DNA of 32,000 bases from an uncultured archaeon (GCA_964565725.1 CAZMGA010000003.1:1-32000); one strand, 5' to 3'. Counted from the first letter of the stretch, positions 2,937 through 19,023 are shown. Numbers and translations: made by a program. The notes: a model not told the origin generated them from the sequence alone.

Positions 2937-3007
2937 ATATAAACTAATTTGTACTCTTTTAAAATCTTTTCTCCTTTTATATATATTATTTTTATTATTT
3001 TATAATT

Positions 3008-3014
3008 AGGTGAT
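3008..3014 (+). promoter_or_regulatory. Shine-Dalgarno-like AGGTGAT, 3 nt before the tyrS ATG
   Basis: AGGTGAT-TTT-ATG. It is complementary to the conserved archaeal 16S 3' end (..GAUCACCUCC). Confidence 0.6.
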
Positions 3015-3017
3015 TTT

Positions 3018-4055
3018 ATGAATACAGAGCAAAAATATGATTTAATAGTTAGAAATTTACAAGAAGTAATGGATGAAAAACAATTAAAAGAAATATTAGA
3101 AAAAAGGGATTTATCTTTATATTGGGGAACTGCCCCAACAGGTAAAATTCATATTGGTTATTTAATTCCTTTTACAAAATTAGCTGATTTTTTAGAAGCT
3201 GGTTGTGAAGTTAAAATATTATTGGCTGATTTACATGCTTTTTTAGATTCTCAAAAAACACCTTGGGAATTATTAGATGCAAGAACTTTATATTACGAAC
3301 AAGTAATTAAAGAAACTTTGAAAGCATTGAAAGTTGATATAACAAAATTAAAATTTTTTAAAGGTACTGAATATCAATTAACAAAGGAATTTAGTTTAGA
3401 TTTATATAGATTTACAAGTATAACTACAGTTTCAGAAGGTATAAAAGCAGGTGCTGAAGTTGTAAAACAAAGTGAAAATCCGAGATTGGCGCCAGTATTA
3501 TATCCTTTATTACAATCTTTGGATGAAGAATATTTAAAAGTTGACGCTCAGTTTGGGGGTACAGACCAAAGAAAAATATTTGTTTTGGCTCATGAATTTT
3601 TGCCAAAGTTAGGGTATAAAAAAAGAATACATTTAATGAATCCAATGCTTCCTGGGTTGCAAGGTTCAAAAATGAGTTCAAGTGATGCAAATTCAAAAAT
3701 CGATTTGTTAGATTCTCCAGAAATAATAAAAAAGAAATTAAATAATGCTTTTTGTCCTGAAGGTATAATTGAAGATAATGGTGTATTAACATTTATTAAA
3801 TATGCTTTATTTCCTTATTTAAATAGAGTAAATGAAACTTTTGATGTTGAAAGACCAGAAAAATTTGGTGGAAATATATCTTTCAAAAATTATGAGGAAT
3901 TAGAACAAACATTTATCTCTAAAAAAATACATCCTTTAGATGTTAAAAATACAATGTCTAAATATTTAACACAGATTTTAGAGCCTGTTAGAAAAGCATT
4001 TGATGATTCAAATTATAAAGATAATTTGGAAAAAGCATATTCTAATGAAAAATAA
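3018..4055 (+). CDS. tyrS: Tyrosyl-tRNA synthetase (archaeal/eukaryotic type)
   Basis: HIGH-type motif PTGKIHIGY and KMSKS-type motif GSKMSSS. Collinear with recalled M. jannaschii and human TyrRS catalytic and anticodon-binding domains (e.g. KAGAEVVKQ, LDEEYLKVDAQFGG, RPEKFGG). Confidence 0.93.
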   Translation: MNTEQKYDLIVRNLQEVMDEKQLKEILEKRDLSLYWGTAPTGKIHIGYLIPFTKLADFLEAGCEVKILLADLHAFLDSQKTPWELLDARTLYYEQVIKETLKALKVDITKLKFFKGTEYQLTKEFSLDLYRFTSITTVSEGIKAGAEVVKQSENPRLAPVLYPLLQSLDEEYLKVDAQFGGTDQRKIFVLAHEFLPKLGYKKRIHLMNPMLPGLQGSKMSSSDANSKIDLLDSPEIIKKKLNNAFCPEGIIEDNGVLTFIKYALFPYLNRVNETFDVERPEKFGGNISFKNYEELEQTFISKKIHPLDVKNTMSKYLTQILEPVRKAFDDSNYKDNLEKAYSNEK

Positions 4056-4082
4056 AAAGTAGAACTATTATGAAAAGTTTTT

Positions 4083-4087
4083 AAAAA
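4083..4087 (-). terminator. Oligo-T tract directly after the tRNA discriminator base
   Basis: The minus strand reads ..CUUGGCA-TTTTT. Oligo-T is the usual archaeal termination signal. No CCA is encoded. Confidence 0.4.
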
Positions 4088-4259
4088 TGCCAAGAGGGAG
4101 ACTCGAACACCCGACCTCCAGATTTCCCACGATATTTTTCCTTTTTAAAAGAAAAAGTCAATAATCTATTTTAATCATTGTATGTAAAGACATACTCATC
4201 ATTCATAACGATATAATATGTTATGAGTCTGGCACTCTAACCAACTGAGCTACCTTGGC
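4088..4259 (-). tRNA. tRNA with anticodon CAU (elongator Met or Ile2), interrupted by a 98-nt intron at 37/38
   Basis: Hand-folded cloverleaf. Acceptor GCCAAGG/UCUUGGC (one G-U), D arm GCUC-AGUUGGUUA-GAGU, anticodon stem CCAGA/UCUGG, loop CUCAUA|A, variable AGGUC, T arm GGGUG-UUCGAGU-CUCCC (one U-U), discriminator A. Exons are 4222-4259 and 4088-4123. This is the only GC-rich island in the window. Confidence 0.9.
4124..4221 (-). other. tRNA intron (98 nt) with a bulge-helix-bulge-compatible junction
   Basis: C32-A35 (CUCA) can pair with the intron 3' UGGG. This leaves 3-nt bulges UA|A and AA|A separated by 4 bp. Internal perfect hairpin GUAUGU-CUUU-ACAUAC (4180-4195) and an A/U hairpin (4135-4156). 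Confidence 0.75.
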
Positions 4260-4385
4260 ATTATCCTTTTCTTTTTTAAAAGAAAGGTTTAAATTTGTCT
4301 AAAGAAAACATATAACTTAAAGTTGTATTCTTTTTAGCAGTTAATATTAAAATAATTTGAATGGAAACTATTATAAAGTATACTT

Positions 4386-5399
4386 TTATTTGGATTTTAA
4401 CAAATAATCCTTTTCTCTTTCTTCTAAATTGTATTTTGTATTGTAAAATAATTCACAAATATATAAACAATCATTAATTCTGGTGTCTTTTTTTGGCACA
4501 ATCATATTAAAGTTTTTATTTTCTTTACAAAGAATAGGTAAAATCATATTTGTACAATTTAAATCTAAAGGGGTTTCTCTTTCATATAAACTTATTAATT
4601 TATCTGCTAATTCTTTACCTAATTGAGTTGGTTGCTTTTTTGAAGAAGATAAATTTGTACCCATAAGTGTATTTTCATATCTAATTATTACATCAGCCCC
4701 AAATCCTTTGTTTTTATCTCTATTTTCTACAAAAGTATTCAAAAATTCATTAACTTTTATTTCTTTTGGATTTAATGTGTTTTTTATACCTTCTAATATA
4801 TATTCATTTATTATTTCTTTATGACCATATGAATGTATATCTATAGTAATATGTTCTAAGTCTCCTTTTTCTAATAATTCAAAATTTTTTATTTTACTTG
4901 ATTTTTTTATATGTAGAATAATTTTACCTTGATCTTTATCATATCCTCTTTTTGTAATTTCAATTTTAAAATTTAATCCTATTTTTGAGAACATAGGACA
5001 AATTATATTTTTAAAATAATCAGCACTTAATTTGTTTTCAGAATTTGTTGGTCCTAATAAACCAATATTCATATCTTCATTATAATAAAGTATAAATAAA
5101 TACGGTAATAAAACTGTTAATAAGGAAGGATATTTAAATGAAATTAATGGAGCTTTTCTTATTATTTTTGGAGAAAAAGTATATTCTGTTGATCCTTCTT
5201 TTATACCATTAACTTCTGCGTTTGAAATCTGTTTTAAAATTTCTAAATAAATGGTATCTTCATAGGTTAAGCCAGGTTTTTCATCATTAATTCGTATATT
5301 TTTTACTTGAATTGCTTTATTTTCACATATAGCCAATGTTGTTGCTAATCTCATTGTAAATCCTGAATGATTTTTATTTGCGTCAATTTCTAAAAACAT
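4386..5399 (-). CDS. RNA 3'-terminal phosphate cyclase-fold protein (RtcA/Rcl1 family), probably non-catalytic
   Basis: Typical length of 337 aa and collinear with recalled E. coli RtcA (VKNIRINDEKPGL vs ITSIRAGRAKPGL; MILPILC vs LVLPMAL). The GGGQ motif and the C-terminal His-containing motif (SCHLLTN) are not recognisable. GTGAT at 5403-5407 lies 3 nt before the ATG. Confidence 0.6.
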   Translation of the reverse strand: MFLEIDANKNHSGFTMRLATTLAICENKAIQVKNIRINDEKPGLTYEDTIYLEILKQISNAEVNGIKEGSTEYTFSPKIIRKAPLISFKYPSLLTVLLPYLFILYYNEDMNIGLLGPTNSENKLSADYFKNIICPMFSKIGLNFKIEITKRGYDKDQGKIILHIKKSSKIKNFELLEKGDLEHITIDIHSYGHKEIINEYILEGIKNTLNPKEIKVNEFLNTFVENRDKNKGFGADVIIRYENTLMGTNLSSSKKQPTQLGKELADKLISLYERETPLDLNCTNMILPILCKENKNFNMIVPKKDTRINDCLYICELFYNTKYNLEEREKDYLLKSK

Positions 5400-5509
5400 G
5401 TTATCACTGTGTTAACCGTTATATAATAATATACTTTGGCTTTATAAATATAATCCTAATTTAATAAATAAATATTTAAATATGATTAGAATTGTATATA
5501 TACGATAGT

Positions 5510-6529
5510 ATGAGCTTTTTAATAATTGGAAATAAATTGGAGTCTTTATTGTTGGCTGATTATTTATACGAACGTGGTTGGCCTGTAACATTAATATCTA
5601 GGTTTAAATTTGAATACTCTACATTAACTGAATTAGCAGATCCTAAAGAATTAGAAGAAATAGGATTTAATTATTCTTCAGGAGTTTTGTGTGAAATTAA
5701 AAAAATGAAGATTATAGATATAGATAATAATATACGAGAACAAGAAACAAATACAGTTTTATTAGATACTTCTGTTTATTGCAAACTTTTATATAATAAA
5801 TTAAAATCTAAATGTGTTTTTATAGAGGATTCAAATTATATAGATAAAAATAATGAAAATGTTTTTATTCAACAAGGTGTTCATGGCACATTATTAAAAT
5901 TAAAATATGTTTTTTCTCTTAATGATTATAATGTAATATCAAAAAAAGAAAATAAAAAATGTATAAAAGCAAGTTTATGTATGCCTGGAAAAATTGGAGA
6001 ATTAGTATTGAAATTTTTACCAACTGGTTATATGTGGTATGTAAATTATACTGAAAATGTTGCTGAATTGTGTATTATTTCTGAAGACCCTGAAAAAGAA
6101 TTTAATTTGTTTTTAGAAACTAGCAAAGCAAAATTAATAAGTCATAAAGGTTTATTATTACCAATATACAAAAATGAAAGAATATTGGATAATAATTCTT
6201 TATATTATGGTGGGGATTGTGCTTTAATAAATAATAATTTTAATTTTTATAATTTTGTTTTTAAGATAAGATTTAATAAATTAACTTGTAATTATGCACA
6301 TGAATTAATGTTTAAAAAAAATATAAGTTATTATTTAATTACAAAAGATATAGATTCTGAATTGCATTATTTAGAAAAAGAAGGAAACATTTTTTGGAAT
6401 TTAAATGATAAAAAGAAAAATGAAATTATTAAAAAAATGGACTTTAAAAGATTTGCATTAGATTTTAGTTCGGGTTTTAAAAATTCATCTAAATTATCAA
6501 AAATAAATTTGAAATTATTATTTAAATGA
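5510..6529 (+). CDS. Geranylgeranyl-reductase/FAD-oxidoreductase-like protein with degenerate dinucleotide-binding motif
   Basis: MSFLIIGNKLESLLLADYLYERGWPVTLI aligns with the Rossmann beta-alpha-beta but has GNKLES in place of GxGxxG. LPTGYMWYV and YYGGDCALI resemble GGR-family PGGYxWxFP and GDAAG motifs. Start moved from TTG 5492 to ATG 5510; a TATA-like ATATTTAAATAT lies at 5472-5483. Confidence 0.4.
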   Translation: MSFLIIGNKLESLLLADYLYERGWPVTLISRFKFEYSTLTELADPKELEEIGFNYSSGVLCEIKKMKIIDIDNNIREQETNTVLLDTSVYCKLLYNKLKSKCVFIEDSNYIDKNNENVFIQQGVHGTLLKLKYVFSLNDYNVISKKENKKCIKASLCMPGKIGELVLKFLPTGYMWYVNYTENVAELCIISEDPEKEFNLFLETSKAKLISHKGLLLPIYKNERILDNNSLYYGGDCALINNNFNFYNFVFKIRFNKLTCNYAHELMFKKNISYYLITKDIDSELHYLEKEGNIFWNLNDKKKNEIIKKMDFKRFALDFSSGFKNSSKLSKINLKLLFK

Positions 6530-7794
6530 TTGTTATGAGTTTCTTTATAAAAACTTTTGGTTGCGCTTCAAATATTGCAGATAGTGAATATGTTAAGAAC
6601 GAATTAAAACTGGCTGGATTAAAAGAAACTAATGAAATCGATGCTGAATTTATAATAGTAAATACTTGTGTAGTTAAAGGCCCTACAATAAACAAAATAA
6701 AAAATTATATTTTTAATCTAAAAAACCCAAAATACAACATAATAATTATGGGCTGTATGCCTTCTGATAAAAAAACAATTATAGAGTTCAAAAAATATTC
6801 TATATTAACGCCTTATAACTTAGACGAAATTCTTAGTTTAATTTTTTATATAAAAGCTAATAAAAAATCAAAACATATTTTAAGTCCTAAAAAATTAGAT
6901 AAAACCCAATTTTCTTTTGAAAATAAAGATTATGCTATAATTCAACCATTAATAGGTTGTTTAGGTAATTGTAATTATTGTAGAACTAAATTAGCAAAAC
7001 CCTTATTTTATAGTTATCCTTTGGAAAATATTTTAAATAGAATTGATTATTATATAAAAAAAGGAGTAAAAGAAATTTGGATTAGTTCTGAAGATAATGC
7101 AGCATATGGGTTAGATATAGGTTTGAATTATATGATTTTATTAAATGCAATTGAAAATAAGTTTGCGGGCAAAGCTATGTTTAGATTTGGAATGGCAAAT
7201 CCTTGGTTATTAAAAACTTATGCTAAAGAATTGGTAAATTTTATTAAAAATTCTAAAGCATTTTATAAATTTTTACATATACCTATACAAAGTGCATCTA
7301 CAAATGTATTAAAAGCAATGAATAGACCTTATACTAATAAAGATTTACATGCTTTTTTTAAAATTTTAAGAAAATTAAATTACAAGGAATTGACTTTATC
7401 AACAGATATAATTTTAGGTTATTATAATGAAACAGAGTATGATTTTAAAAAAACTTTAAAATTTATTAATAAATATGATTTTTTAATAGTAAATATTTCT
7501 CAATTGTGGGTTTTGCCAAATACAGAAGTTGCAACACATAAACAATTACCTACAGAAATAAAAAAAGAAAGGAGTAGAATTTCAACAATGAATGTTGAAA
7601 ACAAGTCAAAAAAATTGTTAACTAGTTTTTTGGGTAAAAAAGTAGAAGTTTATTTTAATAAAATAGATTCTGATAATAATTATTTAGGTAGAACGAGAAA
7701 TTATATATCTGTAATTAGTAAATCGAAACAAGAATTAAATGTTTGGAAAGAAGTAAAAATAAATAGTGTTGAAAATTTTCATTTATTATGTTAA
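6526..7794 (+). CDS. MiaB-like radical-SAM tRNA methylthiotransferase (archaeal/eukaryotic MtaB-CDKAL1 type)
   Basis: N-terminal MTTase cysteines (FGCASNIADSE, NTCVVK, MGCMP), radical-SAM CLGNCNYC, and a C-terminal TRAM-like segment GKKVEVYF. The ATGA overlaps the upstream stop; the alternative start is ATG 6535. Confidence 0.85.
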   Translation: MIVMSFFIKTFGCASNIADSEYVKNELKLAGLKETNEIDAEFIIVNTCVVKGPTINKIKNYIFNLKNPKYNIIIMGCMPSDKKTIIEFKKYSILTPYNLDEILSLIFYIKANKKSKHILSPKKLDKTQFSFENKDYAIIQPLIGCLGNCNYCRTKLAKPLFYSYPLENILNRIDYYIKKGVKEIWISSEDNAAYGLDIGLNYMILLNAIENKFAGKAMFRFGMANPWLLKTYAKELVNFIKNSKAFYKFLHIPIQSASTNVLKAMNRPYTNKDLHAFFKILRKLNYKELTLSTDIILGYYNETEYDFKKTLKFINKYDFLIVNISQLWVLPNTEVATHKQLPTEIKKERSRISTMNVENKSKKLLTSFLGKKVEVYFNKIDSDNNYLGRTRNYISVISKSKQELNVWKEVKINSVENFHLLC

Positions 7795-7831
7795 ATAGTT
7801 AAAAAGAAAAATATATATATGTTATTGAAAT

Positions 7832-7849
7832 ATTATATTATAATATAAT
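7832..7849. promoter_or_regulatory. Perfect 18-bp palindrome ATTATATTATAATATAAT upstream of the surface-protein cluster
   Basis: All nine base pairs checked by hand. It lies between A/T-rich TATA-like sequence (7808-7820) and the AGAGGT SD (7853-7858), 15 nt before ATG 7865. Confidence 0.35.
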
Positions 7850-7864
7850 TATAGAGGTCTATTT

Positions 7865-8848
7865 ATGAAAAATATTTTTGAATTAGGTGTTTTATTTTTA
7901 GGAGTAATGATTTTAGTAATAAGTTTAAATAATATTTATGCAGGTAATTCAGAAAATGTAGATGTAGGTGTAAATGTTTCAAATGCTTTACCACAAATAT
8001 TAGATGTAAATATTTGTGAATCAGGCGTTTGTAGCAAATATTTAGGTAATATAACTCCAGGAGCAAGTAGCTTTTATTTACAAATAAATGCATACGATCC
8101 TAATGGTTATTCTGATATTAATTGGGCTGCAACTCAAATTCATATTTTTAAATCGGATTTTAGTTTAGATACTAATGAAGAATTTGATGGAAATATAGAT
8201 TATAAAAAATTAACTTTAAATACTACTCCTTTACCTTTAGGCGAAGGTGATTCATATAATGGATTTATAGAAGAAGATGGTCAAGGTTGTGTTTCTAATC
8301 AAGATTTTACAGAAGAAATAAATTGTTATCTAGTTAATGAAGATGTTTTTACTGCAGGATTTGCAGTAGGTGGCGCAAATGTATATATTAAAATATTTGA
8401 TATTAATGGAGAATCTGCAACTTATTTATTAAATTATTTGGCTGATACTAATGGTTTAAATATTATTCAAACATTAGATTTTTCATTAAGTGTTGATGAT
8501 ATGTATGGAATTGTTTATAGTGGTGCAACAGGAGATGAAAACGTTCCATTTTTCAATTACGAAACAGATTCAAATTATATTTCTATTGTAAATGAAAGTA
8601 ATGTTAGTGTAGATTTAAATTTTTCTCACACTAATTTAGTAGACGATTCTAATGTTGATAATATAATTGATAAAAAATATATCCATGCAGATAATTCAAA
8701 AGATATAAATTTTGAATCAGGATCTGTTATTGGGGGTAGTTTAGATAGACAAGAAGGAATGAATTTAAGAACTGTATTGGACATTCCTGAAGGAACTCAT
8801 TCTGGTAGTTATTCTGGAACTATGGGTATAGGTATATCTGCAAATTAG
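7865..8848 (+). CDS. Secreted protein, stand-alone copy of the module found at the C-terminus of the LamG protein
   Basis: Signal-like MKNIFELGVLFLGVMILVISLNNIYA|GN with no C-terminal anchor. Residues from about 36 onward are paralogous to residues from about 605 of ORF 10849-13482. SD AGAGGT lies 6 nt upstream. Confidence 0.6.
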   Translation: MKNIFELGVLFLGVMILVISLNNIYAGNSENVDVGVNVSNALPQILDVNICESGVCSKYLGNITPGASSFYLQINAYDPNGYSDINWAATQIHIFKSDFSLDTNEEFDGNIDYKKLTLNTTPLPLGEGDSYNGFIEEDGQGCVSNQDFTEEINCYLVNEDVFTAGFAVGGANVYIKIFDINGESATYLLNYLADTNGLNIIQTLDFSLSVDDMYGIVYSGATGDENVPFFNYETDSNYISIVNESNVSVDLNFSHTNLVDDSNVDNIIDKKYIHADNSKDINFESGSVIGGSLDRQEGMNLRTVLDIPEGTHSGSYSGTMGIGISAN

Positions 8849-8856
8849 GTAATTTT

Positions 8857-9462
8857 ATGAATAAATATTTTTCATTATTAATAGGATTAATAATTTTAAG
8901 TTCATGTGTTTCAGCATTAGCGTGTGTTGGTTTAGGTGGTGGAGGCTATACTGTATTGGCTGCAAAAGAACAACCCTCTTTTATAACCTATACTGTTTTT
9001 AACAATGATTCTGAAAATACTTGTGATGCTGGGAAATATTTTTTAGAATTATCTATAGATAATGAAGATATCCAAAAAGTATTTGATTATAAAATTTCTG
9101 ATGAAGATTTTGTATTAAAAGATGGAGAATCAAAAAGAGTATTAATAACTATAATTCCTAAATTAAAATCAGGAGAATACACAGTTAGAGTTTCAGCATT
9201 AAGAAAAGGATTAATTAATGCAAAAGATGCTACAACTGTTATGCCTAAAACAGTTAGTTCTTTTAAATTAAATATTGTAGAAGATTCAAATTTAGTTTTT
9301 CAAGAATTACCTCAATGGTATTTATATAAAAAAGAACAACAAAAAAATTTAATAATTAAAATTATTTTGTATTCTGTAATAGGAATTATTATATTGGCTT
9401 TAATTATTTATTTAGCTTTACGTTTTAAATCAAAATTTTTTAATGGCTTTAAATATAAGTGA
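8857..9462 (+). CDS. Small Ig-like surface protein, signal peptide plus C-terminal TM anchor
   Basis: MNKYFSLLIGLIILSSCVSALA (possible lipobox LSSC). Beta-sandwich-like core (GESKRVLITIIPKLKSGEYTVRVSA). C-terminal IIKIILYSVIGIIILALIIYLALRFKSK. AGGTAAT-TTT-ATG upstream. Confidence 0.55.
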   Translation: MNKYFSLLIGLIILSSCVSALACVGLGGGGYTVLAAKEQPSFITYTVFNNDSENTCDAGKYFLELSIDNEDIQKVFDYKISDEDFVLKDGESKRVLITIIPKLKSGEYTVRVSALRKGLINAKDATTVMPKTVSSFKLNIVEDSNLVFQELPQWYLYKKEQQKNLIIKIILYSVIGIIILALIIYLALRFKSKFFNGFKYK

Positions 9463-10844
9463 TATTTCTGAATAAAAAAATTTTAGTTTTATTTTGTTTT
9501 TTTTGTTTATTATCTAATTTAGGGTTTTCCGAAAAAACAATTAATGTGGGTTTAATAATTTCTAATGAACCTCCTTCCAAACCAAATATTGTGAACATAA
9601 ACGATCTTTATGGCATTAATAATATTACTTTAAGTTGGTCTAGTTATGATTATGAAAACGACGATATTAAATATTTTTTACAAATGGGTTCTTTAAAAGA
9701 TTTAAATGATATTTTAGATATAAATTTAGACTCAAATTATTATAATTTAACTTTAAATATAGGTAAAGAATATTTTTATAAAATAAAAGCTTGCGACAAT
9801 TATTATGGAGATTATAACAATTGTAGTGTTTGGGCTTATGATTCATTTTATTTGTTAAGTATTATTATTAATCCTCCGTCAAGTAGAGGTGGAGGTAATA
9901 ATAAAATTATAACTAATGTATCTATTTTTGGTTGTAAAGATTTAAATGGTTTTGAATGCAATGCTAATGAAGTATGTTATGATAGCACAATAAATACTTA
10001 TGATTCGCAAAATTGTTGCTTTTCAAAATGTATTAATAAAGAATTAATTGGTAAATTATATGATTTAAATTATAATTTTCAAGATTTAAATTTAAATTCT
10101 AATTTGAATATAACTATTCCTATCTATTCCAATGAAAAAATAGATTTTATTAATAAAAGAATATTAACTGATTACGAGATAGAATATAAATTAATGTTAA
10201 AAAGGTATGGTATTTATGGTTTAAAAAATAATTATAAATATAGAAATTATGTATTTGTATCTATTACTAATATTTCTAATTTTAATTTTCAAGATGTAGA
10301 TTTAATAATAAATATACCTGAAGAATATTTATTAAATTCTGAAAATATTTCTAGTAATAATTTGTTTTCTTTTTTAGACAATAAAAATTTAAAATATATT
10401 TTAGGGGATGTAGATACAAAACAAACAAAAACAGTAAATTATTATTTTGATTCAGACCTAAATGATTCTTTTATTTATGATGTTTTTTTAAAAATGAAAC
10501 CTCCTATAGCATTAACAAAAATGGATAAAGAAGATTTATGTTTAGGTGTTAAATGTAATGATTTAAATCCTTGCACCACTGATTTTTGTATGGAGGGTTT
10601 ATGTTATTTTAGTAATTTGCCTTCTAATTATGAATGTGAAAATGGTTTTTGTAGTGAAGGTAAATGTATTCCTCAAATAGAAGAATCTAAACAATCAAGT
10701 CCAAAGTATTTAAAATACATTTTATGGGGTTTATTATTTATATTTATATTTGTAATTATTATACTATTATTTTTTAGATTATTTAAAAGAAAAAAGGAAG
10801 AACATAAATGGTATTTATTAAATAATATTAGAATTTTTAAGTGA
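9459..10844 (+). CDS. FN3-like / cysteine-rich surface protein with C-terminal TM anchor
   Basis: Signal-like KKILVLFCFFCLLSNLGFS. FN3-like PPSKPNIV..ITLSWSS..YFYKIKACD. Cys-rich modules CKDLNGFECNANEVC..CCFSKC and CLGVKCNDLNPCTTDFCMEGLC..CENGFCSEGKC. C-terminal YILWGLLFIFIFVIIILLFFRLFKRKK. No in-frame ATG near the 5' end; the start is either GTG 9459 (GTGA overlap with the upstream stop) or CTG 9468. Confidence 0.55.
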   Translation: MIFLNKKILVLFCFFCLLSNLGFSEKTINVGLIISNEPPSKPNIVNINDLYGINNITLSWSSYDYENDDIKYFLQMGSLKDLNDILDINLDSNYYNLTLNIGKEYFYKIKACDNYYGDYNNCSVWAYDSFYLLSIIINPPSSRGGGNNKIITNVSIFGCKDLNGFECNANEVCYDSTINTYDSQNCCFSKCINKELIGKLYDLNYNFQDLNLNSNLNITIPIYSNEKIDFINKRILTDYEIEYKLMLKRYGIYGLKNNYKYRNYVFVSITNISNFNFQDVDLIINIPEEYLLNSENISSNNLFSFLDNKNLKYILGDVDTKQTKTVNYYFDSDLNDSFIYDVFLKMKPPIALTKMDKEDLCLGVKCNDLNPCTTDFCMEGLCYFSNLPSNYECENGFCSEGKCIPQIEESKQSSPKYLKYILWGLLFIFIFVIIILLFFRLFKRKKEEHKWYLLNNIRIFK

Positions 10845-10845
10845 T
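10841..10845 (+). promoter_or_regulatory. Shine-Dalgarno-like GTGAT, 3 nt before ATG 10849
   Basis: AAGTGATATT-ATG. The same AGTGATATT string recurs at 9457, 15591 and 22785. Confidence 0.55.
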
Positions 10846-10848
10846 ATT

Positions 10849-13482
10849 ATGAAGTATATTTGTCTATTATTTTTATTTTTATTTTTATTTTTATTTTTGG
10901 GTTTTGTTTATTCTGGAACAATTGTAAATACTACAAAAGAGGATTTTGATTTAGGTGAATATGACAATACAATTTCTACTTCTGATGGTAATGTTTTATT
11001 AGATTCGTCAAGTAATGTTTATTATAATACTGGAGAATATTTATCACAAATCTTTAATTTAAACGAATCATCTAATTTAGTAAATTTAATTTTTTCTACT
11101 CCTGTTTTTTATAAACAAGATTTACCTAATGATGGAGATGTAGTAAAAGACATAAACATGAATGGAAATGTTTTTTTAATGCATGTTGATGATGACGCAT
11201 TAATAAAAAATGAATCTGAATTATATGGTTTAGGCCTACGTGGTGATATAACATCAACAACAGGTAAATTTGGCGATGCTTTAATTTTTGATGGTAGCAA
11301 TGATATCGCTTTTACTGATTACCTTATTCCTACAAATGAATATACTTTTTCATTATGGGTAAAAACAACAACAAATAATAGAACAATATTTTCTTTTGCA
11401 AATGACACCCCTACTGGTAGTACATATGATAGAAGGTTAGGAATTGACGGTTCTAATAAGCTAGTATATTATATTTATCCAAATTCATCAGTATCTTTAA
11501 TAGGTGCTGCTACAACAATTACTAATAATAATTGGCATCATATTGTAATTATATCTAAATTAAATAGTTCCACATCAAAATATGATCTTAATGTTTATTT
11601 GGATGGTGTTTTAGATTCTAATAAAACAGAGGTAAATTTTGGTGGTTATAATTCTTATACAAATCCTAGACTAAATATAGGTTATCAAGCAACTTATTTT
11701 TTAGGAGCTATAGATGATTTTGCATATTATAATAGAGCATTAACTATTGATGAAATTTCTTATTTATATAATTCAGGAACAGGAAACGAATTTTTAACTG
11801 ATAATAGTTTAGTTGTTGGTTGGCATTTTAATGAAACTATTAACTCTATGACTTTACAAGATACATCTCCTACTCCAAAAACTTTTGTGTATCCTAGTGC
11901 TGCAAATAATTATACAGGAATATCTTATGAAGTTATAAATAATAGTTTATTTTCTCAAAATGTCACCAATTCTACTGATTATTTTATTAAAACATCACAA
12001 TTTTATCCTCCTGCCGGAGCTATGAGTATAAGCTTTTGGTTTAAAAGCATTTTAGATAGGAAAAGTTTTTTAGGTTGGGTAGGGGGTTCTCCAAATAATA
12101 GTGTTTTTATTGAAGGTGGCTACATAAAATGGTATTATTCCAATGCATCTACTTATTTTGCTACAACTAAAACAGTTAATGATGGGAAATGGCATCATGT
12201 AGTATTTACTAGAAATAGCAGTAATTCTAGAAAAGTTTATTTAGATGGTGTTTTAAATAACAGTTCTACAACTTCTTTTACTATTAATAATGATTTTACT
12301 ACTGCGGTAATATTATATTTATTTCATAGTGCGGTATATTATGGAGGGTCTGGTTCTTTAGATGAATTGGCTATTTGGGATAGAGAAATTAGTAGTGACG
12401 AAGCATTAAATATATATAAAAGAGGAATTAGTGATTTAAAAGTTCAAATTAGAGCTTGTGATGATTCTAGTTGTTCTTCTGATGAAGATTTTGAAGGTTC
12501 ATCCGGTGAAAATTCTTATTTTAATTTGAGTGATAATAATTATGATTTATCTAGTTTTACGAATTTACAATATTTACAATATAAAGTATTTTTTGAAACT
12601 TTAGATTTGGATGCATTAAAAAATATTTCTCCTCAATTTTTAGATGTAAATATTAATTATGTAAGTAATGTACCTCAAAATGAAAAACCAGAAATATTAG
12701 ATATGAATATATGTAAAGAAAATTGTAAAAAAACGCAAATGATAGTTCCTGGAATTGATTCTTTTGTTTTGCAAATTGAGATTAATGATCCTAATGGTAA
12801 TTCAGATATAAATTGGGAATCTGCGACATTACAAATTTATACTGCTAGTGATAATAATGAAGATTCAGATGATTGGGATCATATTACTTTGAACGAATTT
12901 ACATCTTCAGAAACAGAGGGCTGTGAAATAATTTCTGATATTAATTGTATTTTAATAAATGCTAATGATTTGTCTACAAAGTTTTTGAAAGGTGGTGCAG
13001 ATATTTATTTTAAAATTTCAGATTATTCTGGAGAATCTGTAACTTATGAATTAAATTATTTTAAAGATGAAAACAATTTGGATATAAATGGTTTAAATAT
13101 ACAAAATACAACTAGTATAAGCATAGATGTTAGTCAAGGTTATTTTTCAGGAGACCCTGGTGAAGAAAATATTCCTATAATTACAGATAAAGAAACAAAT
13201 TATATAGTAGTAGTTAACAATAGTAATAGTGATGTTAATTTATTTTTTTTAATTAATGATTTTATAGGTATAAGCGATTTTCCAATAACTGGTTTTGAAT
13301 GGAATAATTCAAATTTAGCTGTAGGCAATAATTTTGAAAATGAAAGAAACATATTAATTGAAAATTGGAATAGGGGTGCATATCCTGATTCTAATTCTCA
13401 AAATATTTATTTATGGTTAGATATGCCTCCAGTTTCTTCTGGGGAATACACTGGTAGTTTTTCTTTTGAAATTGAAAATTAG
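10849..13482 (+). CDS. Large secreted protein with two LamG/concanavalin-A-like domains and a C-terminal module paralogous to ORF 7865-8848
   Basis: Signal MKYICLLFLFLFLFLFLGFVYS. LamG-1: GKFGDALIFDGSND..YTFSLWVKT..WHHIVII..VYLDGV..GAIDDFAYYNRALTIDEISYLY. LamG-2: MSISFWFKS..GKWHHVVFT..VYLDGV..GSLDELAIWDREISSDEALNIY. No C-terminal TM. Confidence 0.75.
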   Translation: MKYICLLFLFLFLFLFLGFVYSGTIVNTTKEDFDLGEYDNTISTSDGNVLLDSSSNVYYNTGEYLSQIFNLNESSNLVNLIFSTPVFYKQDLPNDGDVVKDINMNGNVFLMHVDDDALIKNESELYGLGLRGDITSTTGKFGDALIFDGSNDIAFTDYLIPTNEYTFSLWVKTTTNNRTIFSFANDTPTGSTYDRRLGIDGSNKLVYYIYPNSSVSLIGAATTITNNNWHHIVIISKLNSSTSKYDLNVYLDGVLDSNKTEVNFGGYNSYTNPRLNIGYQATYFLGAIDDFAYYNRALTIDEISYLYNSGTGNEFLTDNSLVVGWHFNETINSMTLQDTSPTPKTFVYPSAANNYTGISYEVINNSLFSQNVTNSTDYFIKTSQFYPPAGAMSISFWFKSILDRKSFLGWVGGSPNNSVFIEGGYIKWYYSNASTYFATTKTVNDGKWHHVVFTRNSSNSRKVYLDGVLNNSSTTSFTINNDFTTAVILYLFHSAVYYGGSGSLDELAIWDREISSDEALNIYKRGISDLKVQIRACDDSSCSSDEDFEGSSGENSYFNLSDNNYDLSSFTNLQYLQYKVFFETLDLDALKNISPQFLDVNINYVSNVPQNEKPEILDMNICKENCKKTQMIVPGIDSFVLQIEINDPNGNSDINWESATLQIYTASDNNEDSDDWDHITLNEFTSSETEGCEIISDINCILINANDLSTKFLKGGADIYFKISDYSGESVTYELNYFKDENNLDINGLNIQNTTSISIDVSQGYFSGDPGEENIPIITDKETNYIVVVNNSNSDVNLFFLINDFIGISDFPITGFEWNNSNLAVGNNFENERNILIENWNRGAYPDSNSQNIYLWLDMPPVSSGEYTGSFSFEIEN
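10867..10896 (+). repeat. (TTATTT)x5 perfect hexanucleotide tandem repeat encoding (LF)5 in the signal-peptide core
   Basis: tta ttt repeated five times in frame at 10867-10896. Confidence 0.9.
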
Positions 13483-13490
13483 TTTATAAA
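13483..13490 (+). promoter_or_regulatory. TATA-box-like TTTATAAA about 25 nt before the herA ATG (leaderless-type promoter geometry)
   Basis: TTTATAAA starts 28 nt before ATG 13511 and no SD-like motif intervenes. Caveat: TATA-like strings are common in DNA this A/T-rich. Confidence 0.4.
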
Positions 13491-13510
13491 TTCTTTTACT
13501 TTATTTTAAT

Positions 13511-15010
13511 ATGAATTATATAGGAACTGTTTTAACATATCAAAATACCCCTTCTATTGAAAAAATATATTTTAAATTAGAAAAAGAAGAAGTGAGAGTG
13601 GGTCAATTTATAACAATTAAACATAAAGATTTGAAAATATTTGGAACTATTGTAGAAATATTTAGAGAAAATCCTTTTTTTGAACAAGTTACTTCTAATT
13701 ACGATGATTTATTATCTAAATTTCCTACAGATCAATGGCACAACACAATTATAGAAGTTAAATTGTTAGGTCAAATTTTAAATAATAAATGTGATAGAAT
13801 ACATAACCCTCCATTTTCGGGTTCAAAAGTTTATTTTGCAAAAGCAGAAGAAATAAAATTGTTCTTGGGATTAAATAATGATGGGCTTTATTTAGGTAAT
13901 ATTGAAGGGCAAGAAAATATAGATATTAAAATAAATATGTCTAAATTAATTCAAAAACATTTGGCAATATTGGCTATGTCTGGGGCTGGTAAATCTTATA
14001 CTGTTTCAGTATTGTTAGAGGAATTATTAGATATTCCTAAAAATAAAGGTCCTGTGGGTATTATTTTATTTGATATTCATGGAGAATATAAAAGTTTTGC
14101 AGAAGTTTCTGATAAAGATCATAAAAGTTATCATAACCTTACAAAGTATTTTGATGCCGCAAATATGAAATTTGGGGTGCATTCTTTAGATTCTTTGTTG
14201 TTTAAATTTATTGGTAATTTAAGTGAAGTACAACAAAGAGAATTAAATTTAGTAATTAAAGAGTTTAAAAGTGGAGACGATTTTAAAGTATTTGATTTTA
14301 AAGATTTGATAAAATTTATAGATGAAAAAGAAATTAAAAAAAATGTAAAAGATCCTTTATTGGACACACTTTGTCAAATTGAAGAAACAAAGTTATTTGC
14401 AAAAACAAGTACATTTAATATTTTAAATTTAGTAGAACCAGGAAAACTTACAATAGTTGATTTATCAAATGTTTTAAATATGAGTCATAAGCAAATGATT
14501 GTAGCTTATATTTCTAACAAATTATTTGATTTGAGAAGATTAAATAAAATAAGTCCTTTTTTAATTGTTTTAGAAGAGGCACATAATTTTATTCCTCAAA
14601 CAGGTTCTAGTGAATATATGAAAGCTAGGCCTATATTTGAAACAATAGCTAGAGAAGGTAGAAAATTTGGAGCTTCACTATGTTTGGTATCTCAAAGACC
14701 TGTTAATTTATATACTTCTGTTTTAAGTCAATGTAATACTCATTTGTTATTAAGAATAATTAATCCTAATGATTTAAAACACATTTTAGAATCTTCAGAA
14801 GGTTTAGATAATAATAATATAAAATTAATTACAGGTTTGAATGTAGGAGAGGCATTAATGGTGGGTTCTGCTGTAAAATACCCTGTTTTTTTTAAAGTGA
14901 GGCCTAAAAAATCAGCAGATAATAAATATGAAAAAGATTTAGAAACTATGTCTTTAGAATTTATTGAAAAACAAGAAAATAATGACAAAGATTTAGATTT
15001 GTACATGTGA
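13511..15010 (+). CDS. herA: HerA-type (COG0433/DUF87) FtsK-HerA superfamily ATPase
   Basis: N-terminal HAS-barrel-like region (VRVGQFITIKHKDLKIFGTIVEI). Walker A AMSGAGKSYTVSVLLEELL, FDIHGEY, Walker B LIVLEEAHNFIP, EGRKFGASLCLVSQRP, VLSQCNTHLLLRIINPND. Confidence 0.8.
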   Translation: MNYIGTVLTYQNTPSIEKIYFKLEKEEVRVGQFITIKHKDLKIFGTIVEIFRENPFFEQVTSNYDDLLSKFPTDQWHNTIIEVKLLGQILNNKCDRIHNPPFSGSKVYFAKAEEIKLFLGLNNDGLYLGNIEGQENIDIKINMSKLIQKHLAILAMSGAGKSYTVSVLLEELLDIPKNKGPVGIILFDIHGEYKSFAEVSDKDHKSYHNLTKYFDAANMKFGVHSLDSLLFKFIGNLSEVQQRELNLVIKEFKSGDDFKVFDFKDLIKFIDEKEIKKNVKDPLLDTLCQIEETKLFAKTSTFNILNLVEPGKLTIVDLSNVLNMSHKQMIVAYISNKLFDLRRLNKISPFLIVLEEAHNFIPQTGSSEYMKARPIFETIAREGRKFGASLCLVSQRPVNLYTSVLSQCNTHLLLRIINPNDLKHILESSEGLDNNNIKLITGLNVGEALMVGSAVKYPVFFKVRPKKSADNKYEKDLETMSLEFIEKQENNDKDLDLYM

Positions 15011-15014
15011 TGTT

Positions 15015-15539
15015 ATGAAAATATTAATTACAGGAATTCCAGGTGTTGGAAAGACAACAATTGCTAAAAATTTATCTAAACATTTGAAATTAAAATATTT
15101 TTGTGATAAACAATTTATAAATAAAAACAATTCTATTAAAAGTAAAGAATATGGTTTAGAAATAAAAACAGTTGATTTAGAAAATTTTTGTAAAGATTTT
15201 AATAAGTTTAAAAAAGGTAAAGATTTTATTATAGAAGGGTTATTATTGCCTTATTGTTTATCGGGGTTAAAAATTAATTTTGACTATATTTTTATTTTAA
15301 ATTTAAATAATAAGGAGTTAATTAAGAGATTAAAAAAAAGAAAATACCCTTTATTAAAAATTGAAGACAATCTATTTATTCAAGATAATGATTTAATATT
15401 AAAAGAAATTGCAAATCAAATAAAAGCATTAAATCCTAAGCAAAAGCCTATAATTATAAATATAGATTTAAAAGGTAATCTAAAAGAAGATAAAATTCCT
15501 ATTTATTGGTTTTTTGACGCTCTAAATCCTAAAAAATAG
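15015..15539 (+). CDS. Fap7/AK6-like adenylate kinase-type NTPase
   Basis: MKILITGIPGVGKTTIAKNL P-loop at the extreme N-terminus, IIEGLLLPY, and a LID-like LIKRLKKRKYPLLKIEDNLF. GTGATG overlaps the herA stop 2-3 nt before the ATG. Confidence 0.6.
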   Translation: MKILITGIPGVGKTTIAKNLSKHLKLKYFCDKQFINKNNSIKSKEYGLEIKTVDLENFCKDFNKFKKGKDFIIEGLLLPYCLSGLKINFDYIFILNLNNKELIKRLKKRKYPLLKIEDNLFIQDNDLILKEIANQIKALNPKQKPIIINIDLKGNLKEDKIPIYWFFDALNPKK

Positions 15540-15601
15540 CAAAGAATATATATATTTAATTATGATATTTATTATAATAGAAATGCTTTAGAGTGATATT
15601 T

Positions 15602-16771
15602 GTGCGTAGATTTATATTTTTATTATTATCTTTATTTGTTTTTTCAGGTATTTCCGCATTAGAATTCCCTGGTTTGATTTACAATTTTGATGAATTAGGC
15701 GTACCTTTAGAATTTAATCAGGGTCTTTGTTATAACTTTGTAGATTTAAATTATGATGCTATAAATGATTATGAGGGTATTTTAGGTTTAATTTTACATT
15801 TTAAAACAATATCAAAAGATAGTGCTATTTATTTTAAAGATGGAAATGAAATAATAACTTACAACAATATTTTTGGGTCTAATATTAGTACAAAATATTT
15901 TGTAGAGGATTCTCAAGAAAAATATTTATATGTAGATTTGGAATCAGTTAGGGATTTAGAATATTTGACAATGTGTAGTGTATCTCAAAATAAAATTTAC
16001 TTTTTAGGAGATTCACAAATAGGTAGTTATAAAATACCTTATTTTGGATCTAACTTTAAAAAAGAATTTGTGAATAAATCTTATAAATTAAATGAAAAAA
16101 CACCTGTTAAAATTACTCTGAAAAATACAGGTTATGATACTGCCAAAGTTTTTGTTTTTTATGATAATGAATTATTTAAGGATTGGTTTAAATTAAAAAA
16201 TGGAACTCCTTCTTTAAATGAAAATATTTTGCCAAATGTAGAGAGATCTATAACATATAATGTAGTACCATTAACTGATAAAATGTTTACTGTATCTCCT
16301 GCTGTTTTACATTATAATTATAATGGTTATAATTTTGAAATTTATTCTAATTCATTAATTTCAAATGCTCGTTTATATTTAGATGAAATATTTGTAGATT
16401 TATCAGTAAGCAAAGAAAGTTTTGATATTAATGAAGCAGGTTTAATAGATTTAGATATTATTAATGATAGTAATAATTCTAAAATGGTAAGAATGGAAAT
16501 TAAAGGATTATCTAATTTTGGGTTAAATGAATATCAAGATTTAAATTTAGGTCCTTTCGAAGAAAAGAGAATTCAATATACTATTACTAGTAATGAAAGC
16601 AAAATTGTTAATTTAGATGTTTATTTACATGCTAATGATTCAAATAAAGAATATGCTTATAAAACAATTTATTTTGGAAAAAATATTCAAAACTATAATA
16701 TAATTTATGTTATTTTTGCAATAGTATTAATTTTAGGAATTATAGTTTATTATAGATATGGATTAAAATAA
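15602..16771 (+). CDS. Surface protein with Ig-like (CARDB/TRAP-beta-like) domains, signal peptide and C-terminal TM anchor
   Basis: With GTG 15602 as start the N-terminus is MRRFIFLLLSLFVFSGISA|LEF. The track's GTG 15593 is itself the GTGAT SD-like motif. Beta-sandwich signatures KTPVKITLKNTGYDTAKVFVFYD..RSITYNVVPL. C-terminal IIYVIFAIVLILGIIVYYRYGLK. Confidence 0.55.
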   Translation: MRRFIFLLLSLFVFSGISALEFPGLIYNFDELGVPLEFNQGLCYNFVDLNYDAINDYEGILGLILHFKTISKDSAIYFKDGNEIITYNNIFGSNISTKYFVEDSQEKYLYVDLESVRDLEYLTMCSVSQNKIYFLGDSQIGSYKIPYFGSNFKKEFVNKSYKLNEKTPVKITLKNTGYDTAKVFVFYDNELFKDWFKLKNGTPSLNENILPNVERSITYNVVPLTDKMFTVSPAVLHYNYNGYNFEIYSNSLISNARLYLDEIFVDLSVSKESFDINEAGLIDLDIINDSNNSKMVRMEIKGLSNFGLNEYQDLNLGPFEEKRIQYTITSNESKIVNLDVYLHANDSNKEYAYKTIYFGKNIQNYNIIYVIFAIVLILGIIVYYRYGLK

Positions 16772-16775
16772 AAAA

Positions 16776-17444
16776 TTAAATTTTTTCACAAATTATTGCC
16801 TGTAATTTTTCATAATATTTACAATTTTTAAATCCAACTTGTTTTAATCGTTTTATAATTTCTAAATCAAATCTTCTATTTTTATTTTTGCCAATTGTGC
16901 CTATATAATGAAATAATTTGCCATTATTATTTAAAGTTCTATAAAATTCTTTATATAAATTTAAAGAATATAATTCTCCAGCTATACTAAATGTTGGGGG
17001 ATCATGCATTATTATATTTATTTCTTTATCTTTAAATTTTAATATTTGATTTAAACAACTATCTTTTATTATATTAATTTTTTTATTATTAAAAAAATCA
17101 TTACTATAAGGATTTAATTTACCCAATTCTAATATTTCCTTTCTTAATTCTGTAGAAATTACTTTTTTTGCAAATTTGGCTTCCTCTATTGCCAAATATC
17201 CTAAACCTGAACAAGTGTCATAAACTAAGTCTTGACTATTTATTTTAATTGTATTTAAAACTAATTTAGCATAATCTAAAGGAGTATCAAAGTCTTTTAT
17301 TAAGTGCATTCTTATACCATTTATTTCTAATATGGGTATTCCATTGTAAGGTTTTAATGTATAATAATTATCTGTAAACATTCCTAGTTTTTCTAATTTG
17401 TCTTTTTTTTTAATATAATATTTATTATCTTTTTCAATAAGCAT
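16776..17444 (-). CDS. SAM-dependent methyltransferase (predicted archaeal methyltransferase, COG2521-like)
   Basis: Motif I VYDTCSGLGYLAIE and motif IV IIMHDPPTFSIAGELYS, followed by GKLFHYIG, matching my recollection of the COG2521 family. Confidence 0.6.
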   Translation of the reverse strand: MLIEKDNKYYIKKKDKLEKLGMFTDNYYTLKPYNGIPILEINGIRMHLIKDFDTPLDYAKLVLNTIKINSQDLVYDTCSGLGYLAIEEAKFAKKVISTELRKEILELGKLNPYSNDFFNNKKINIIKDSCLNQILKFKDKEINIIMHDPPTFSIAGELYSLNLYKEFYRTLNNNGKLFHYIGTIGKNKNRRFDLEIIKRLKQVGFKNCKYYEKLQAIICEKI

Positions 17445-17491
17445 AAATATAAATAGAACTATTGTTTATTTAATATTATTTGAGTGAGATT

Positions 17492-18124
17492 ATGGTCAAT
17501 AAGTTAATTGTTTGGGATGAATTAAAGTCTGAAAAATATTTGGAAAAACACTTAAATGTGGTAAAATCTTATGTTTATTCTGTGGATGAATTTAATAAAT
17601 TAAATAAACTAAATCTTAACTATCCTTTATTTATAAAAATTATTTCGGATAATGCAATACACAAAGTAAAAGCAAAAGCTATAAATGAAATATTAAACGA
17701 ACAAAAATTTTTAAAGGAAAAAATAAATATTGTAAAAAGAGCAAAAGAGTTAAATGCAAAAAAAATAATTATTCAAGAAAAAATATACGGTAATGAATTA
17801 ATTATTGGTGTAAAAGAAGATTTAAAATTTGGTAAAATTTTGATGATAGGTATAGGTGGAAAACATGCAGAACAAATAAAAGATGTATCTATAAGAGCAT
17901 TACCTATTAAAAAACAAGATTTAACATTAATGATTTCTAATTTAAAAAGTAAAGTAATAACTTTAGATATAGATATTGATAACTTATGGTTATTTATATC
18001 AAAATTATTAAAATTTTTGAAAACAAAAGAAGGTAAAAATATAAAATTTATGGATTTAAATCCAGTTATTTTAGATTATAATTCTAAAAAGCCAATAATT
18101 GTTGATGCTAGAATATATGTCTAA
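17492..18124 (+). CDS. Stand-alone ATP-grasp domain protein related to the beta region of ADP-forming acetyl-CoA synthetase
   Basis: YPLFIKIISDNAIHKVKAKAI, NELIIGVKEDLKFGKILMIGIGGKHAEQIKDVSIRALP and MDLNPVIL...IVDARI are collinear with ATP-grasp_5-type domains. Start set to ATG 17492, preceded by GTGAG-ATT. Confidence 0.55.
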   Translation: MVNKLIVWDELKSEKYLEKHLNVVKSYVYSVDEFNKLNKLNLNYPLFIKIISDNAIHKVKAKAINEILNEQKFLKEKINIVKRAKELNAKKIIIQEKIYGNELIIGVKEDLKFGKILMIGIGGKHAEQIKDVSIRALPIKKQDLTLMISNLKSKVITLDIDIDNLWLFISKLLKFLKTKEGKNIKFMDLNPVILDYNSKKPIIVDARIYV

Positions 18125-19020: not shown

Positions 19021-19023
19021 TTA

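Follow-up and report, generated by a model that had tools for sequence, protein, structure and literature searches.

A conserved four-gene block of DPANN-type archaea that may encode a cell-surface display or adhesin complex

In type 1 and P pili (FimH-FimG-FimF-FimA), the tip adhesin joins an N-terminal lectin domain to a C-terminal pilin-like domain, a paralogue of the shaft subunit. In the surface layer (S-layer) of the Sulfolobales, the soluble canopy protein SlaA is paired with an anchored stalk protein, SlaB, which has beta-sandwich ectodomains and a C-terminal transmembrane (TM) segment; the two genes lie side by side. Here we describe a block of four genes, ORF1 to ORF4 (ORF, open reading frame), that shares features of layout with such systems. 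The block is located at positions 7865-13482 of a 32,000-nucleotide (nt) stretch of DNA from an uncultured archaeon (GCA_964565725.1 CAZMGA010000003.1:1-32000), called the window below.

Among archaeal fibres, the haloarchaeal Tat (twin-arginine translocation) fimbriae are built from the immunoglobulin (Ig)-like pilins TafA and TafE, which assemble by strand donation (PMC11821415; cryo-electron microscopy in PMC12337348). TafC, which has a pilin-like and a laminin-G-like domain, is at the fibre tip, and the TM-anchored TafF, with a pilin-like N-terminal region, is the proposed fibre terminator or anchor (PMC11821415). Archaeal filaments formed by donor-strand complementation (DSC) are chaperone-free and use amphipathic donor strands with small residues, and Ca2+ sites can drive their assembly (PMC12518558). 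DPANN archaea have an expanded set of LamG/concanavalin-A-like proteins (arCOG07813), which have been proposed to be adhesins for host interaction (PMC7414124, PMC5498576). These reports agree with an earlier reading of the window, made from the sequence alone (the sequence-only reading), which had noted that LamG proteins are implicated in host interaction. The attachment of DPANN archaea to surfaces and partner cells is largely unexplained, and the candidates are mostly single proteins chosen by a domain name, "LamG" or "Ig-like".

The four proteins and their shared module

The four genes and the parts of ORF4 are as follows (aa, amino acids).

7865-8848, + strand: ORF1, 327 aa; predicted to be secreted and unanchored; consists of the ORF1 module alone
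8857-9462, + strand: ORF2, 201 aa; signal peptide, predicted beta-sandwich, PxWY motif, TM segment at aa 162-192, basic tail
9459-10844, + strand: ORF3, 461 aa, GTG start; signal peptide, FN3-like domain, two Cys-rich modules, middle beta domain, TM segment, basic tail
10849-13482, + strand: ORF4, 877 aa; large subunit, predicted to be secreted and unanchored
11290..12426, + strand: two LamG/ConA-like jelly rolls of ORF4 (Pfam); the variable head
12640..13479, + strand: C-terminal ORF1 module of ORF4 (aa 598-877), by paralogy to ORF1

An ORF listing reproduces exactly the coordinates and sizes of the four + strand genes. The junctions, +8 nt between ORF1 and ORF2, -4 nt between ORF2 and ORF3, and +4 nt between ORF3 and ORF4, are likewise just as the sequence-only reading had given them. 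Its claim that the genes have Shine-Dalgarno (SD)-like signals holds for ORF1, where a GAGGT element lies 8-12 nt 5' of the ATG, and for ORF2 (GAGGT/AGGT), but ORF4 has a partial match only, and inspection of the region upstream of ORF3 found no such signal.

Signal peptides and topology were read from a Kyte-Doolittle hydropathy scan and from sequence anatomy. All four proteins have an N-terminal hydrophobic segment, and ORF2 (aa 162-192) and ORF3 (aa 416-445) alone have a C-terminal TM segment followed by a basic tail, as had been noticed earlier. At the N-termini, an n-region with Lys precedes a hydrophobic core and AxA-like sites, and there is no RR motif, which indicates Sec-type rather than Tat-type signals. 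A type IV pilin or archaellin identity, a candidate prompted by the A24 peptidase encoded in the window, was rejected on signal-peptide anatomy. By inspection, AxA-like small-residue sites follow the hydrophobic segment, and the conserved mature domain begins beyond that segment. KG motifs near the N-termini, where present, precede charged residues, which is not the arrangement of a class III signal peptide.

The central observation is that one module recurs in the two unanchored proteins. ORF1 has a Sec-type signal (aa 1-26), a strand-like motif at aa 32-43 (VDVGVNVSNALP), and two beta-sandwiches, at aa 44-190 and aa 196-326. Conserved in the first beta-sandwich are two Cys pairs, one of them CxxxxC, and a DPNGxSDIN motif; the second closes with a conserved LDIPxGxxSGxYxG hairpin. 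Over its whole mature length, ORF1 is paralogous to aa 598-877 of ORF4 (34% identity, E 2e-35), a relationship that the sequence-only reading missed. The CxxxxC, the second Cys pair, and the DPNGxSDIN and LDIPxGxxSGxYxG motifs are among the conserved features. AlphaFold2, with a 24-sequence alignment, models ORF1 as two beta-sandwich domains (pLDDT, the predicted local confidence, 80.7; pTM, the predicted template-modelling score, 0.70), and the ORF4 module has pLDDT >90 from aa 611 to 877; the models of ORF1 and of the ORF4 C-terminus support the Ig-like sandwiches read earlier from motifs. In the model of full-length ORF4, aa 23-606 have pLDDT <50, and the alignment there is shallow, so this part is uninformative. 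A Foldseek search with the ORF1 model returns the tandem Ig-like proteins VesC, RbmA, the CfaE tip adhesin, MSCRAMMs, Fabs, and an archaellin, with TM-scores of at most 0.32, which indicate the fold class only.

The ORF1 module has no match in Pfam, NCBIfam, PHROG, or PDB sequences, and the family profile, compared with all PDB sequences, gives a single type of match, a beta-hairpin of GH123 Ig-like domains. The family was reached by an exhaustive profile search of 1.84 billion representatives, in which the module forms 36 clusters only; word-indexed searches with ORF1, ORF3, and the family alignment had returned only 2, 3, and 9 proteins, respectively. Members are stand-alone secreted proteins of ~300 aa or the C-termini of proteins of 780-1263 aa. 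By these comparisons, the ORF1 module is a new, rare protein family.

ORF4 is made of a signal (aa 1-22), a segment without a recognised fold (aa 23-135), LamG 1 (aa 148-304), LamG 2 (aa ~379-526), a linker (aa 531-600), and the ORF1 module (aa 598-877). The two LamG domains were anticipated by the sequence-only reading and are matched by Pfam PF13385 Laminin_G_3 in two stretches (120.3 bits versus a cut-off of 27.6, E 1.1e-34); they also match neurexin LNS and pentraxin domains in the PDB. Among the assignments made for the block, this is, by profile scores, the sole true membership of a known family. The only NCBIfam match of ORF4 is that of TafC, restricted to the second LamG (44.9 bits versus a cut-off of 410). 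In distant versions of the large protein, LamG is replaced by DUF2341 or by unrecognised domains, and the C-terminal module is constant. LamG, to judge from these versions, is an exchangeable head and not a core part of the system. Within the ORF4 signal peptide, the (LF)n core comes from a perfect (TTATTT)x5.3 repeat at window positions 10867-10898. Strains L003/L004 are one TTATTT unit shorter, with an ORF4 of 875 versus 877 aa; since the repeat varies in length and stays in frame, it is not a frameshift switch.

ORF2 is the most conserved of the four proteins, and the PxWY motif is conserved in it. Judged by sequence pattern, its aa ~23-140 are a probable single beta-sandwich domain. Cys23 and Cys56 (window 8923-9027) are invariant together in seven homologues and jointly missing in the versions of locus L020; this joint presence or absence suggests a disulfide. 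Cys23 is the first residue past the predicted signal cleavage site. A lipobox at this position was considered and rejected, as position -1 is often V or I and Cys23 co-varies with Cys56. Profile-profile comparison shows that ORF2 shares only TM segments with ORF3 and nothing with ORF1. In NCBIfam, ORF2 and ORF3 each give one unrelated, sub-threshold model (E ~0.06; 12-13 bits versus cut-offs of 500 and 55).

The second anchored protein, ORF3, has a mature N-terminus (TINVGLIISNEPP) that bears the same motif as that of ORF1. Next is the FN3-like domain, which contains an invariant KACDNYYGDYNNCSxW, followed by Cys-rich module 1 (aa ~159-191), the middle beta domain, Cys-rich module 2 (CNDLNPCTTDFC..., aa 361-403), the TM segment (aa 416-445), and the basic tail. 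The FN3 assignment of the sequence-only reading gains weak support: the ORF3 family profile matches PDB 2yux, the FN3 of MyBP-C, at E 0.011 over aa 29-110, and Pfam finds no fn3 match in ORF3. The CxDxNxCTxDxC module of that reading stands as a motif, its cysteines and D/T positions being invariant among orthologues, but as a Pfam assignment it does not, the match of Dicty_CTDC to it being sub-threshold (23.2 bits versus a cut-off of 27). The view that the block has binding-type domains and no enzyme is upheld, as a Pfam search found no enzyme domain in the four proteins; judged by the domains recognised, the content is of the binding type only.

Related loci and the genomic setting

Related loci were retrieved with the ORF3 alignment. 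Module contexts were recovered at at least 12 distinct loci, including metagenome-assembled genomes (MAGs) of Ca. Iainarchaeum and Diapherotrites. Wherever a module-bearing relative is named, the name is that of a DPANN archaeon (Ca. Diapherotrites or Ca. Iainarchaeum); by these relatives and its genome style, the window organism appears to be of the DPANN type, with a tiny genome. Loci with the module set range from 22% to 47% in G+C content (GC), and they show three gene orders with differing flanks. With O1 to O4 denoting the counterparts of ORF1 to ORF4, the loci are as follows.

Type A, O1-O2-O3-O4, between a MiaB-like gene and HerA: the window, L003/L004, L001, L002
Type B, O4'-O1-O2-O3, with no recognisable LamG in O4': L005/L006, L010 (Ca. 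Iainarchaeum sp. STB_43)
Partial contig fitting type B, O1-O2-O3: L009 (Ca. Diapherotrites)
Partial contigs fitting type B, both cut at the start: L015, the tail of an ORF1-like gene followed by O2-O3; L016, the tail of O2 followed by O3
Type C, O4''-O1a-O1b-O2-giant O3-small TM protein, 37-44% GC: L012/L013, L018, L019, L022
Giant O3 homologues of type C, 1157-1501 aa: L012 5734-10239; L018 6663-10319; L019 6213-9686
L020 (JGI Ga0247841_10005317), 1-19549, 47% GC: an array of four large module-ending proteins

Within type A, identity to the window is 99.8% for L003/L004, ~50% for L001, and 30-42% for L002. The block proteins are 48-57% identical to their L001 counterparts versus 60-84% for the neighbouring housekeeping genes; the four proteins are thus faster-evolving than their neighbours, as is typical of surface proteins. 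Type B loci are flanked by AspRS and YdjM upstream and by fibrillarin and Nop5 downstream. In the giant O3 proteins of type C, 4-5 copies of an FN3-like unit stand in tandem, all bearing the ACDN...NCSxW signature, and a C-terminal TM segment is present; after them comes a conserved protein of 168-175 aa with a signal peptide and a C-terminal TM segment. L018 has the order O4''-O1b-O2-O3, since its large protein has absorbed the first module copy by fusion, and the large protein of L019 carries DUF2341.

One of the large proteins of L020 is cut at the contig start; the three complete ones (990, 1038, and 1263 aa) have LamG. Each of three runs ends directly in an ORF2-like anchored protein (418, 412, and 1920 aa), with overlapping stop and start codons, and the 1920-aa giant has LamG and FN3-like parts in addition to an ORF2-like domain at its start. 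The array resembles an enlarged set of adhesins. In L021 and L023, O2 follows O1, and the next gene of L021 encodes a 726-aa, C-terminally anchored protein that opens with the ORF1-type N-terminal motif and a DPNG motif.

An ORF2-like gene comes after the ORF1-module genes in every locus with downstream sequence. Read across these loci, the invariant core is one to three ORF1-module proteins, then a membrane anchor with an ORF2 domain, usually together with an anchor of the ORF3 type and a large, variable-headed protein. A synteny check had been proposed together with the sequence-only reading; the four genes prove to be syntenic in close relatives, and in distant ones they occur in a rearranged order with other flanks. 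By this comparison, the four genes form a conserved unit. The unit appears to be a four-component module built on two new protein families, ORF1-like and ORF2-like, undescribed in the literature and databases searched; the literature search found no report of a partnership between the ORF1 module and ORF2/ORF3 anchors. These loci bear on the simplest alternative, which is that four unrelated surface proteins are neighbours only, with no joint function. Surface-protein genes do often cluster, and the closest relatives share the flanking genes as well. However, the set survives permutation of gene order, replacement of flanks, duplication, and fusion across loci of 22% to 47% GC, by which mere neighbourhood is already disfavoured and, in our estimate, most improbable.

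The complete type C module also occurs on a 61-kb IMG/VR contig (IMGVR_UViG_3300035701_000031; L019/L024), and many small unannotated ORFs and a LAGLIDADG/HNH-type endonuclease come after type C loci. These features would fit the idea that the block is cargo of a virus or mobile element, encoding envelope/entry or superinfection-exclusion proteins and domesticated in some genomes. We give this idea very little credence. That contig is the only one from a viral catalogue with the module in two scans, no viral hallmark or PHROG match was found for the module proteins or their neighbours, the endonuclease excepted, and the flanks in the window, L001, L002, L006, and L010 are core housekeeping genes. 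In addition, the block has the GC of its surroundings, ~22% throughout the window. In L019/L024, the LAGLIDADG/HNH-type endonuclease gene is followed by ~6 kb of very short ORFs, with no rRNA or viral hallmark in the stretch read. An rRNA intron as the source of the L019 LAGLIDADG gene was rejected, since there is no Rfam match.

The other features of the window that concern us, the proteins being assigned by domain search unless stated otherwise, are as follows.

67-873, + strand: Peptidase_A24 prepilin peptidase (PibD/FlaK-type)
860-2482, - strand: CARDB-domain protein, 540 aa
7795..7864, + strand: intergenic gap upstream of the block, 70 nt, AT-rich, with overlapping palindromes
13511-15010, + strand: HerA-like ATPase (DUF87 + HAS barrel), which begins 28 nt 3' of ORF4
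15593-16771, + strand: TRAP_beta-like (translocon-associated protein beta) protein, 392 aa

Archaeal genes in the window include those for PolB, primase, GINS, aIF1A, aIF2 alpha and beta, Hjc, PAC2, Rad50, and ArgRS. The statement of the sequence-only reading that, apart from the block, the window is almost entirely devoted to information processing goes too far, as the prepilin peptidase, the CARDB protein, and the TRAP_beta-like protein are also present. The first two overlap tail-to-tail and make a second surface-related spot in the window, and the TRAP_beta-like protein is a further predicted membrane/surface beta-sandwich protein near the block. The block proteins do not look like substrates of the prepilin peptidase. 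HerA was considered as a fifth component and rejected: it adjoins the block only in the closest relatives (L001, L002) and not in type B/C loci, and in L006 and L010 fibrillarin/Nop5, not HerA, is downstream. Neither NurA nor Mre11 adjoins the HerA-like gene, and Rad50 is 10 kb off on the opposite strand. A tRNA of 172 nt at 4088-4259 (-), presumably intron-containing, is detected by Rfam (46.7 bits); ARAGORN reported no tRNA in the window.

The 70-nt gap is the sole sizeable non-coding gap at the borders of the block. Perfect AT-only palindromes (ATTATATTAT/ATAATATAAT) at 7830-7849 could be a promoter or operator, or merely low-complexity AT sequence. A scan for sigma-70 promoters and terminators gave 58 sites versus 56 expected and is meaningless in an archaeon of 22% GC.

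Tethered display, fibre, or lattice

Unanchored proteins that share one module, together with a constant adjacent anchor and swapped heads, point to a membrane-tethered display complex. We propose that these genes encode a conserved, modular complex for display or adhesion at the cell surface of DPANN-type archaea, and we put the probability of this reading at about 0.5. All four proteins would be exported via the Sec pathway. ORF1 and ORF4, which are predicted to be unanchored, would bring the common two-beta-sandwich module, alone in ORF1 and behind the two LamG lectin-like heads in ORF4, and would be held at the surface non-covalently, with the module binding another module and the ectodomains of ORF2 and ORF3. 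The ORF2 anchor would be one beta-sandwich on a short stalk, and the ORF3 anchor would present FN3-like, Cys-rich, and beta domains; both would be single-pass and C-terminal. The variable heads would bind a ligand, a cell, or a surface.

We infer the contact of the ORF1 module with the ORF2/ORF3 anchors, the surface location, and the adhesive function from this gene and domain arrangement. The "anchored scaffold plus soluble partner" logic of the sequence-only reading fits the invariant adjacency of ORF1-module genes and genes for ORF2-like anchors, and it is the best-supported reading. Attachment is probably the role of the block, as judged from its sequences; host contact or recognition, as put forward by the sequence-only reading, is a hypothesis.

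Some observations weigh against the display complex. The window encodes two module proteins but one ORF2, which is a difficulty of stoichiometry. The synteny in L001 and L002 alone is uninformative, because their flanks are conserved too. Finally, the N-terminal strand-like motif common to ORF1 and ORF3 would fit a strand-exchange polymer better than simple docking.

The last point raises a possibility that we consider doubtful yet live, namely that the block encodes a Sec-dependent, chaperone-free fimbria formed by DSC, in the manner of the Tat-fimbriae of haloarchaea or the type 1 pili of bacteria. ORF1 would be the repeating subunit, and ORF4, laid out like FimH, would sit at the tip as a LamG adhesin and receive a strand in its C-terminal module. 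ORF3 would be the anchored terminator or base that donates its N-terminal strand, like TafF, and ORF2 an anchored assembly factor or second base. In ORF1-like proteins, the mature N-terminus shows the alternating motif V-x-V-x-A-x-V-x-N-x-x-P, and ORF3-like proteins of types A and B start in the same way, as in L006 (O1 DSVTVTATVGNASP, O3 TDVTITAQIIETNSHP) and L009 (O1 TGLDVSANIGNNAP, O3 SNLSVNASIVGNNHP); type C homologues of ORF3, however, are without it. Conservation of this motif matches that of the domain core (2.41 versus 2.20 bits per column). In the AlphaFold2 monomer models it is unpaired, with pLDDT ~60 in ORF1 and ~46 in ORF4, beside domains with >90, although the unpacked strand of the ORF4 model (aa 598-612) is confounded by the unmodelled region upstream.

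Other evidence is also divided. The Foldseek matches of the ORF1 model include the CfaE tip adhesin and an archaellin, and the conserved DPNGxxDxN motif of ORF1 recalls Ca2+-driven archaeal DSC assembly (PMC12518558). The list of components parallels that of tafi, in which the pilins TafA/E are accompanied by TafC, where LamG is joined to a pilin-like domain, and by TafF with its TM anchor (PMC11821415; structure, PMC12337348). Yet neither sequence nor profile comparison links the proteins to TasA, TafA/E, AbpA, thread, or CanA. Among the ORFs of the window and those annotated around related loci, no gene for a dedicated signal peptidase I (TafD/SipW; Peptidase_S24/S26) was detected, and a two-domain subunit of ~300 aa is unlike known DSC pilins. 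Furthermore, L020 encodes no stand-alone ORF1-type subunit within 19.5 kb. It is tempting to go further and to see here a new class of archaeal surface fibre, which we offer as a speculation somewhat less probable again. Two-domain ORF1 subunits, exported by Sec and linked by N-terminal strand donation without a chaperone, would make up the polymer, with exchangeable adhesin caps (two LamG domains here, DUF2341 or others elsewhere) and, as its root in the membrane, a single-pass protein (ORF3, possibly ORF2) with the same donor-strand motif. The fibre would be an attachment organelle of Iainarchaeota-like DPANN that arose separately from the TasA/Taf and type IV pilin lineages.

The pairing of soluble and anchored proteins and the all-beta, Ig-like folds would also suit an envelope lattice like an S-layer, in which ORF1 and ORF4 form an outer layer on membrane stalks of ORF2 and ORF3, by the logic of SlaA/SlaB. 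Archaeal S-layers often consist of Ig-like domains with sequences diverged beyond recognition (bioRxiv 10.1101/2024.05.28.596244). We think a lattice unlikely. A family of 36 clusters in 1.84 billion is very rare, and its distribution is patchy; the variable heads and the multi-copy arrays, as in L020, are adhesin-like rather than lattice-like, and a paralogous minor/major pair is unusual for S-layers. In the DPANN lineages with assigned folds, MSTP-like beta-sandwich S-layer proteins are reported for Altiarchaeota, Aenigmatarchaeota, Nanoarchaeota, and Micrarchaeota, and no fold is given for Iainarchaeota (bioRxiv 10.1101/2024.05.28.596244). The block proteins have no match to S-layer proteins in Pfam or PDB sequences. 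The search for homology to a characterised S-layer or pilus, a finding that would have counted against the sequence-only reading, returned none.

The ORF1-like and ORF2-like families are without an entry in Pfam, NCBIfam, PHROGs, or PDB, and they offer concrete targets for complex prediction, heterologous expression, antibodies, and cryo-electron tomography. If the ORF1 module docks onto the anchors, as in the display complex that we favour, the block would represent a cohesin/dockerin-like principle of surface display in archaea; if strand exchange is true, it would represent a new lineage of archaeal pili.

Comparison with known surface systems

The N-terminal extensions of chaperone-usher subunits resemble the amphipathic N-terminal strand motif of ORF1-like proteins (e.g., DVTITATVGN). 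Chaperone-usher pili differ in that there is no usher, periplasmic chaperone, or outer membrane here, no sequence relationship, and anchoring by TM proteins; Pfam finds no usher or periplasmic chaperone match among the window proteins, and the genome is archaeal (PolB, GINS, aIF2, Hjc). SlaA/SlaB differ in having no homology to the block, which has four components, variable lectin heads, and a rare distribution. The filaments of the TasA superfamily, i.e., the AbpA/AbpX bundling pili, the Saci_0406 threads, and the CanA/CanX cannulae, are similar in their Sec-secreted beta-sandwich subunits, conserved amphipathic N-terminal strand, and possible Ca2+-binding motif, but none of those described has LamG tips or paired TM anchors (PMC12518558). 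The ORF1 family profile finds no TasA-superfamily member in PDB, and Pfam Peptidase_M73 is present in 0/24 module members.

The sequence-only reading could match the arrangement to no named system, which is too strong, as the haloarchaeal Tat-fimbriae are a functional analogue (PMC11821415). Like the block, tafi is a gene cluster with unanchored Ig-like subunits, a minor subunit with a laminin-G-like domain, and a membrane-anchored protein with a subunit-like N-terminal region. In contrast, tafi proteins have Tat signals and those of the block have Sec-type signals; TafB, TafG, and a signal peptidase like TafD are missing from the block; the subunit is of two domains and ~300 aa here versus one domain and ~170 aa in Taf; and LamG is N-terminal in ORF4 and C-terminal in TafC. 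ORF1, ORF2, and ORF3 have no detectable homology to Taf proteins (NCBIfam returns nothing for ORF1). Homology to tafi, type 1 pili, and SlaA/SlaB was tested for and not found, and all three are best regarded as functional analogues of the block only.

Among the DPANN LamG proteins, ORF4 is in familiar company, as a bona fide LamG protein in a DPANN-type genome. The reports differ in that they treat LamG proteins singly or beside type IV pilus loci (PMC7414124, PMC5498576). Here, one such protein becomes part of a defined multi-gene system, with a shared module for assembly or docking, dedicated predicted anchors, and swappable heads.

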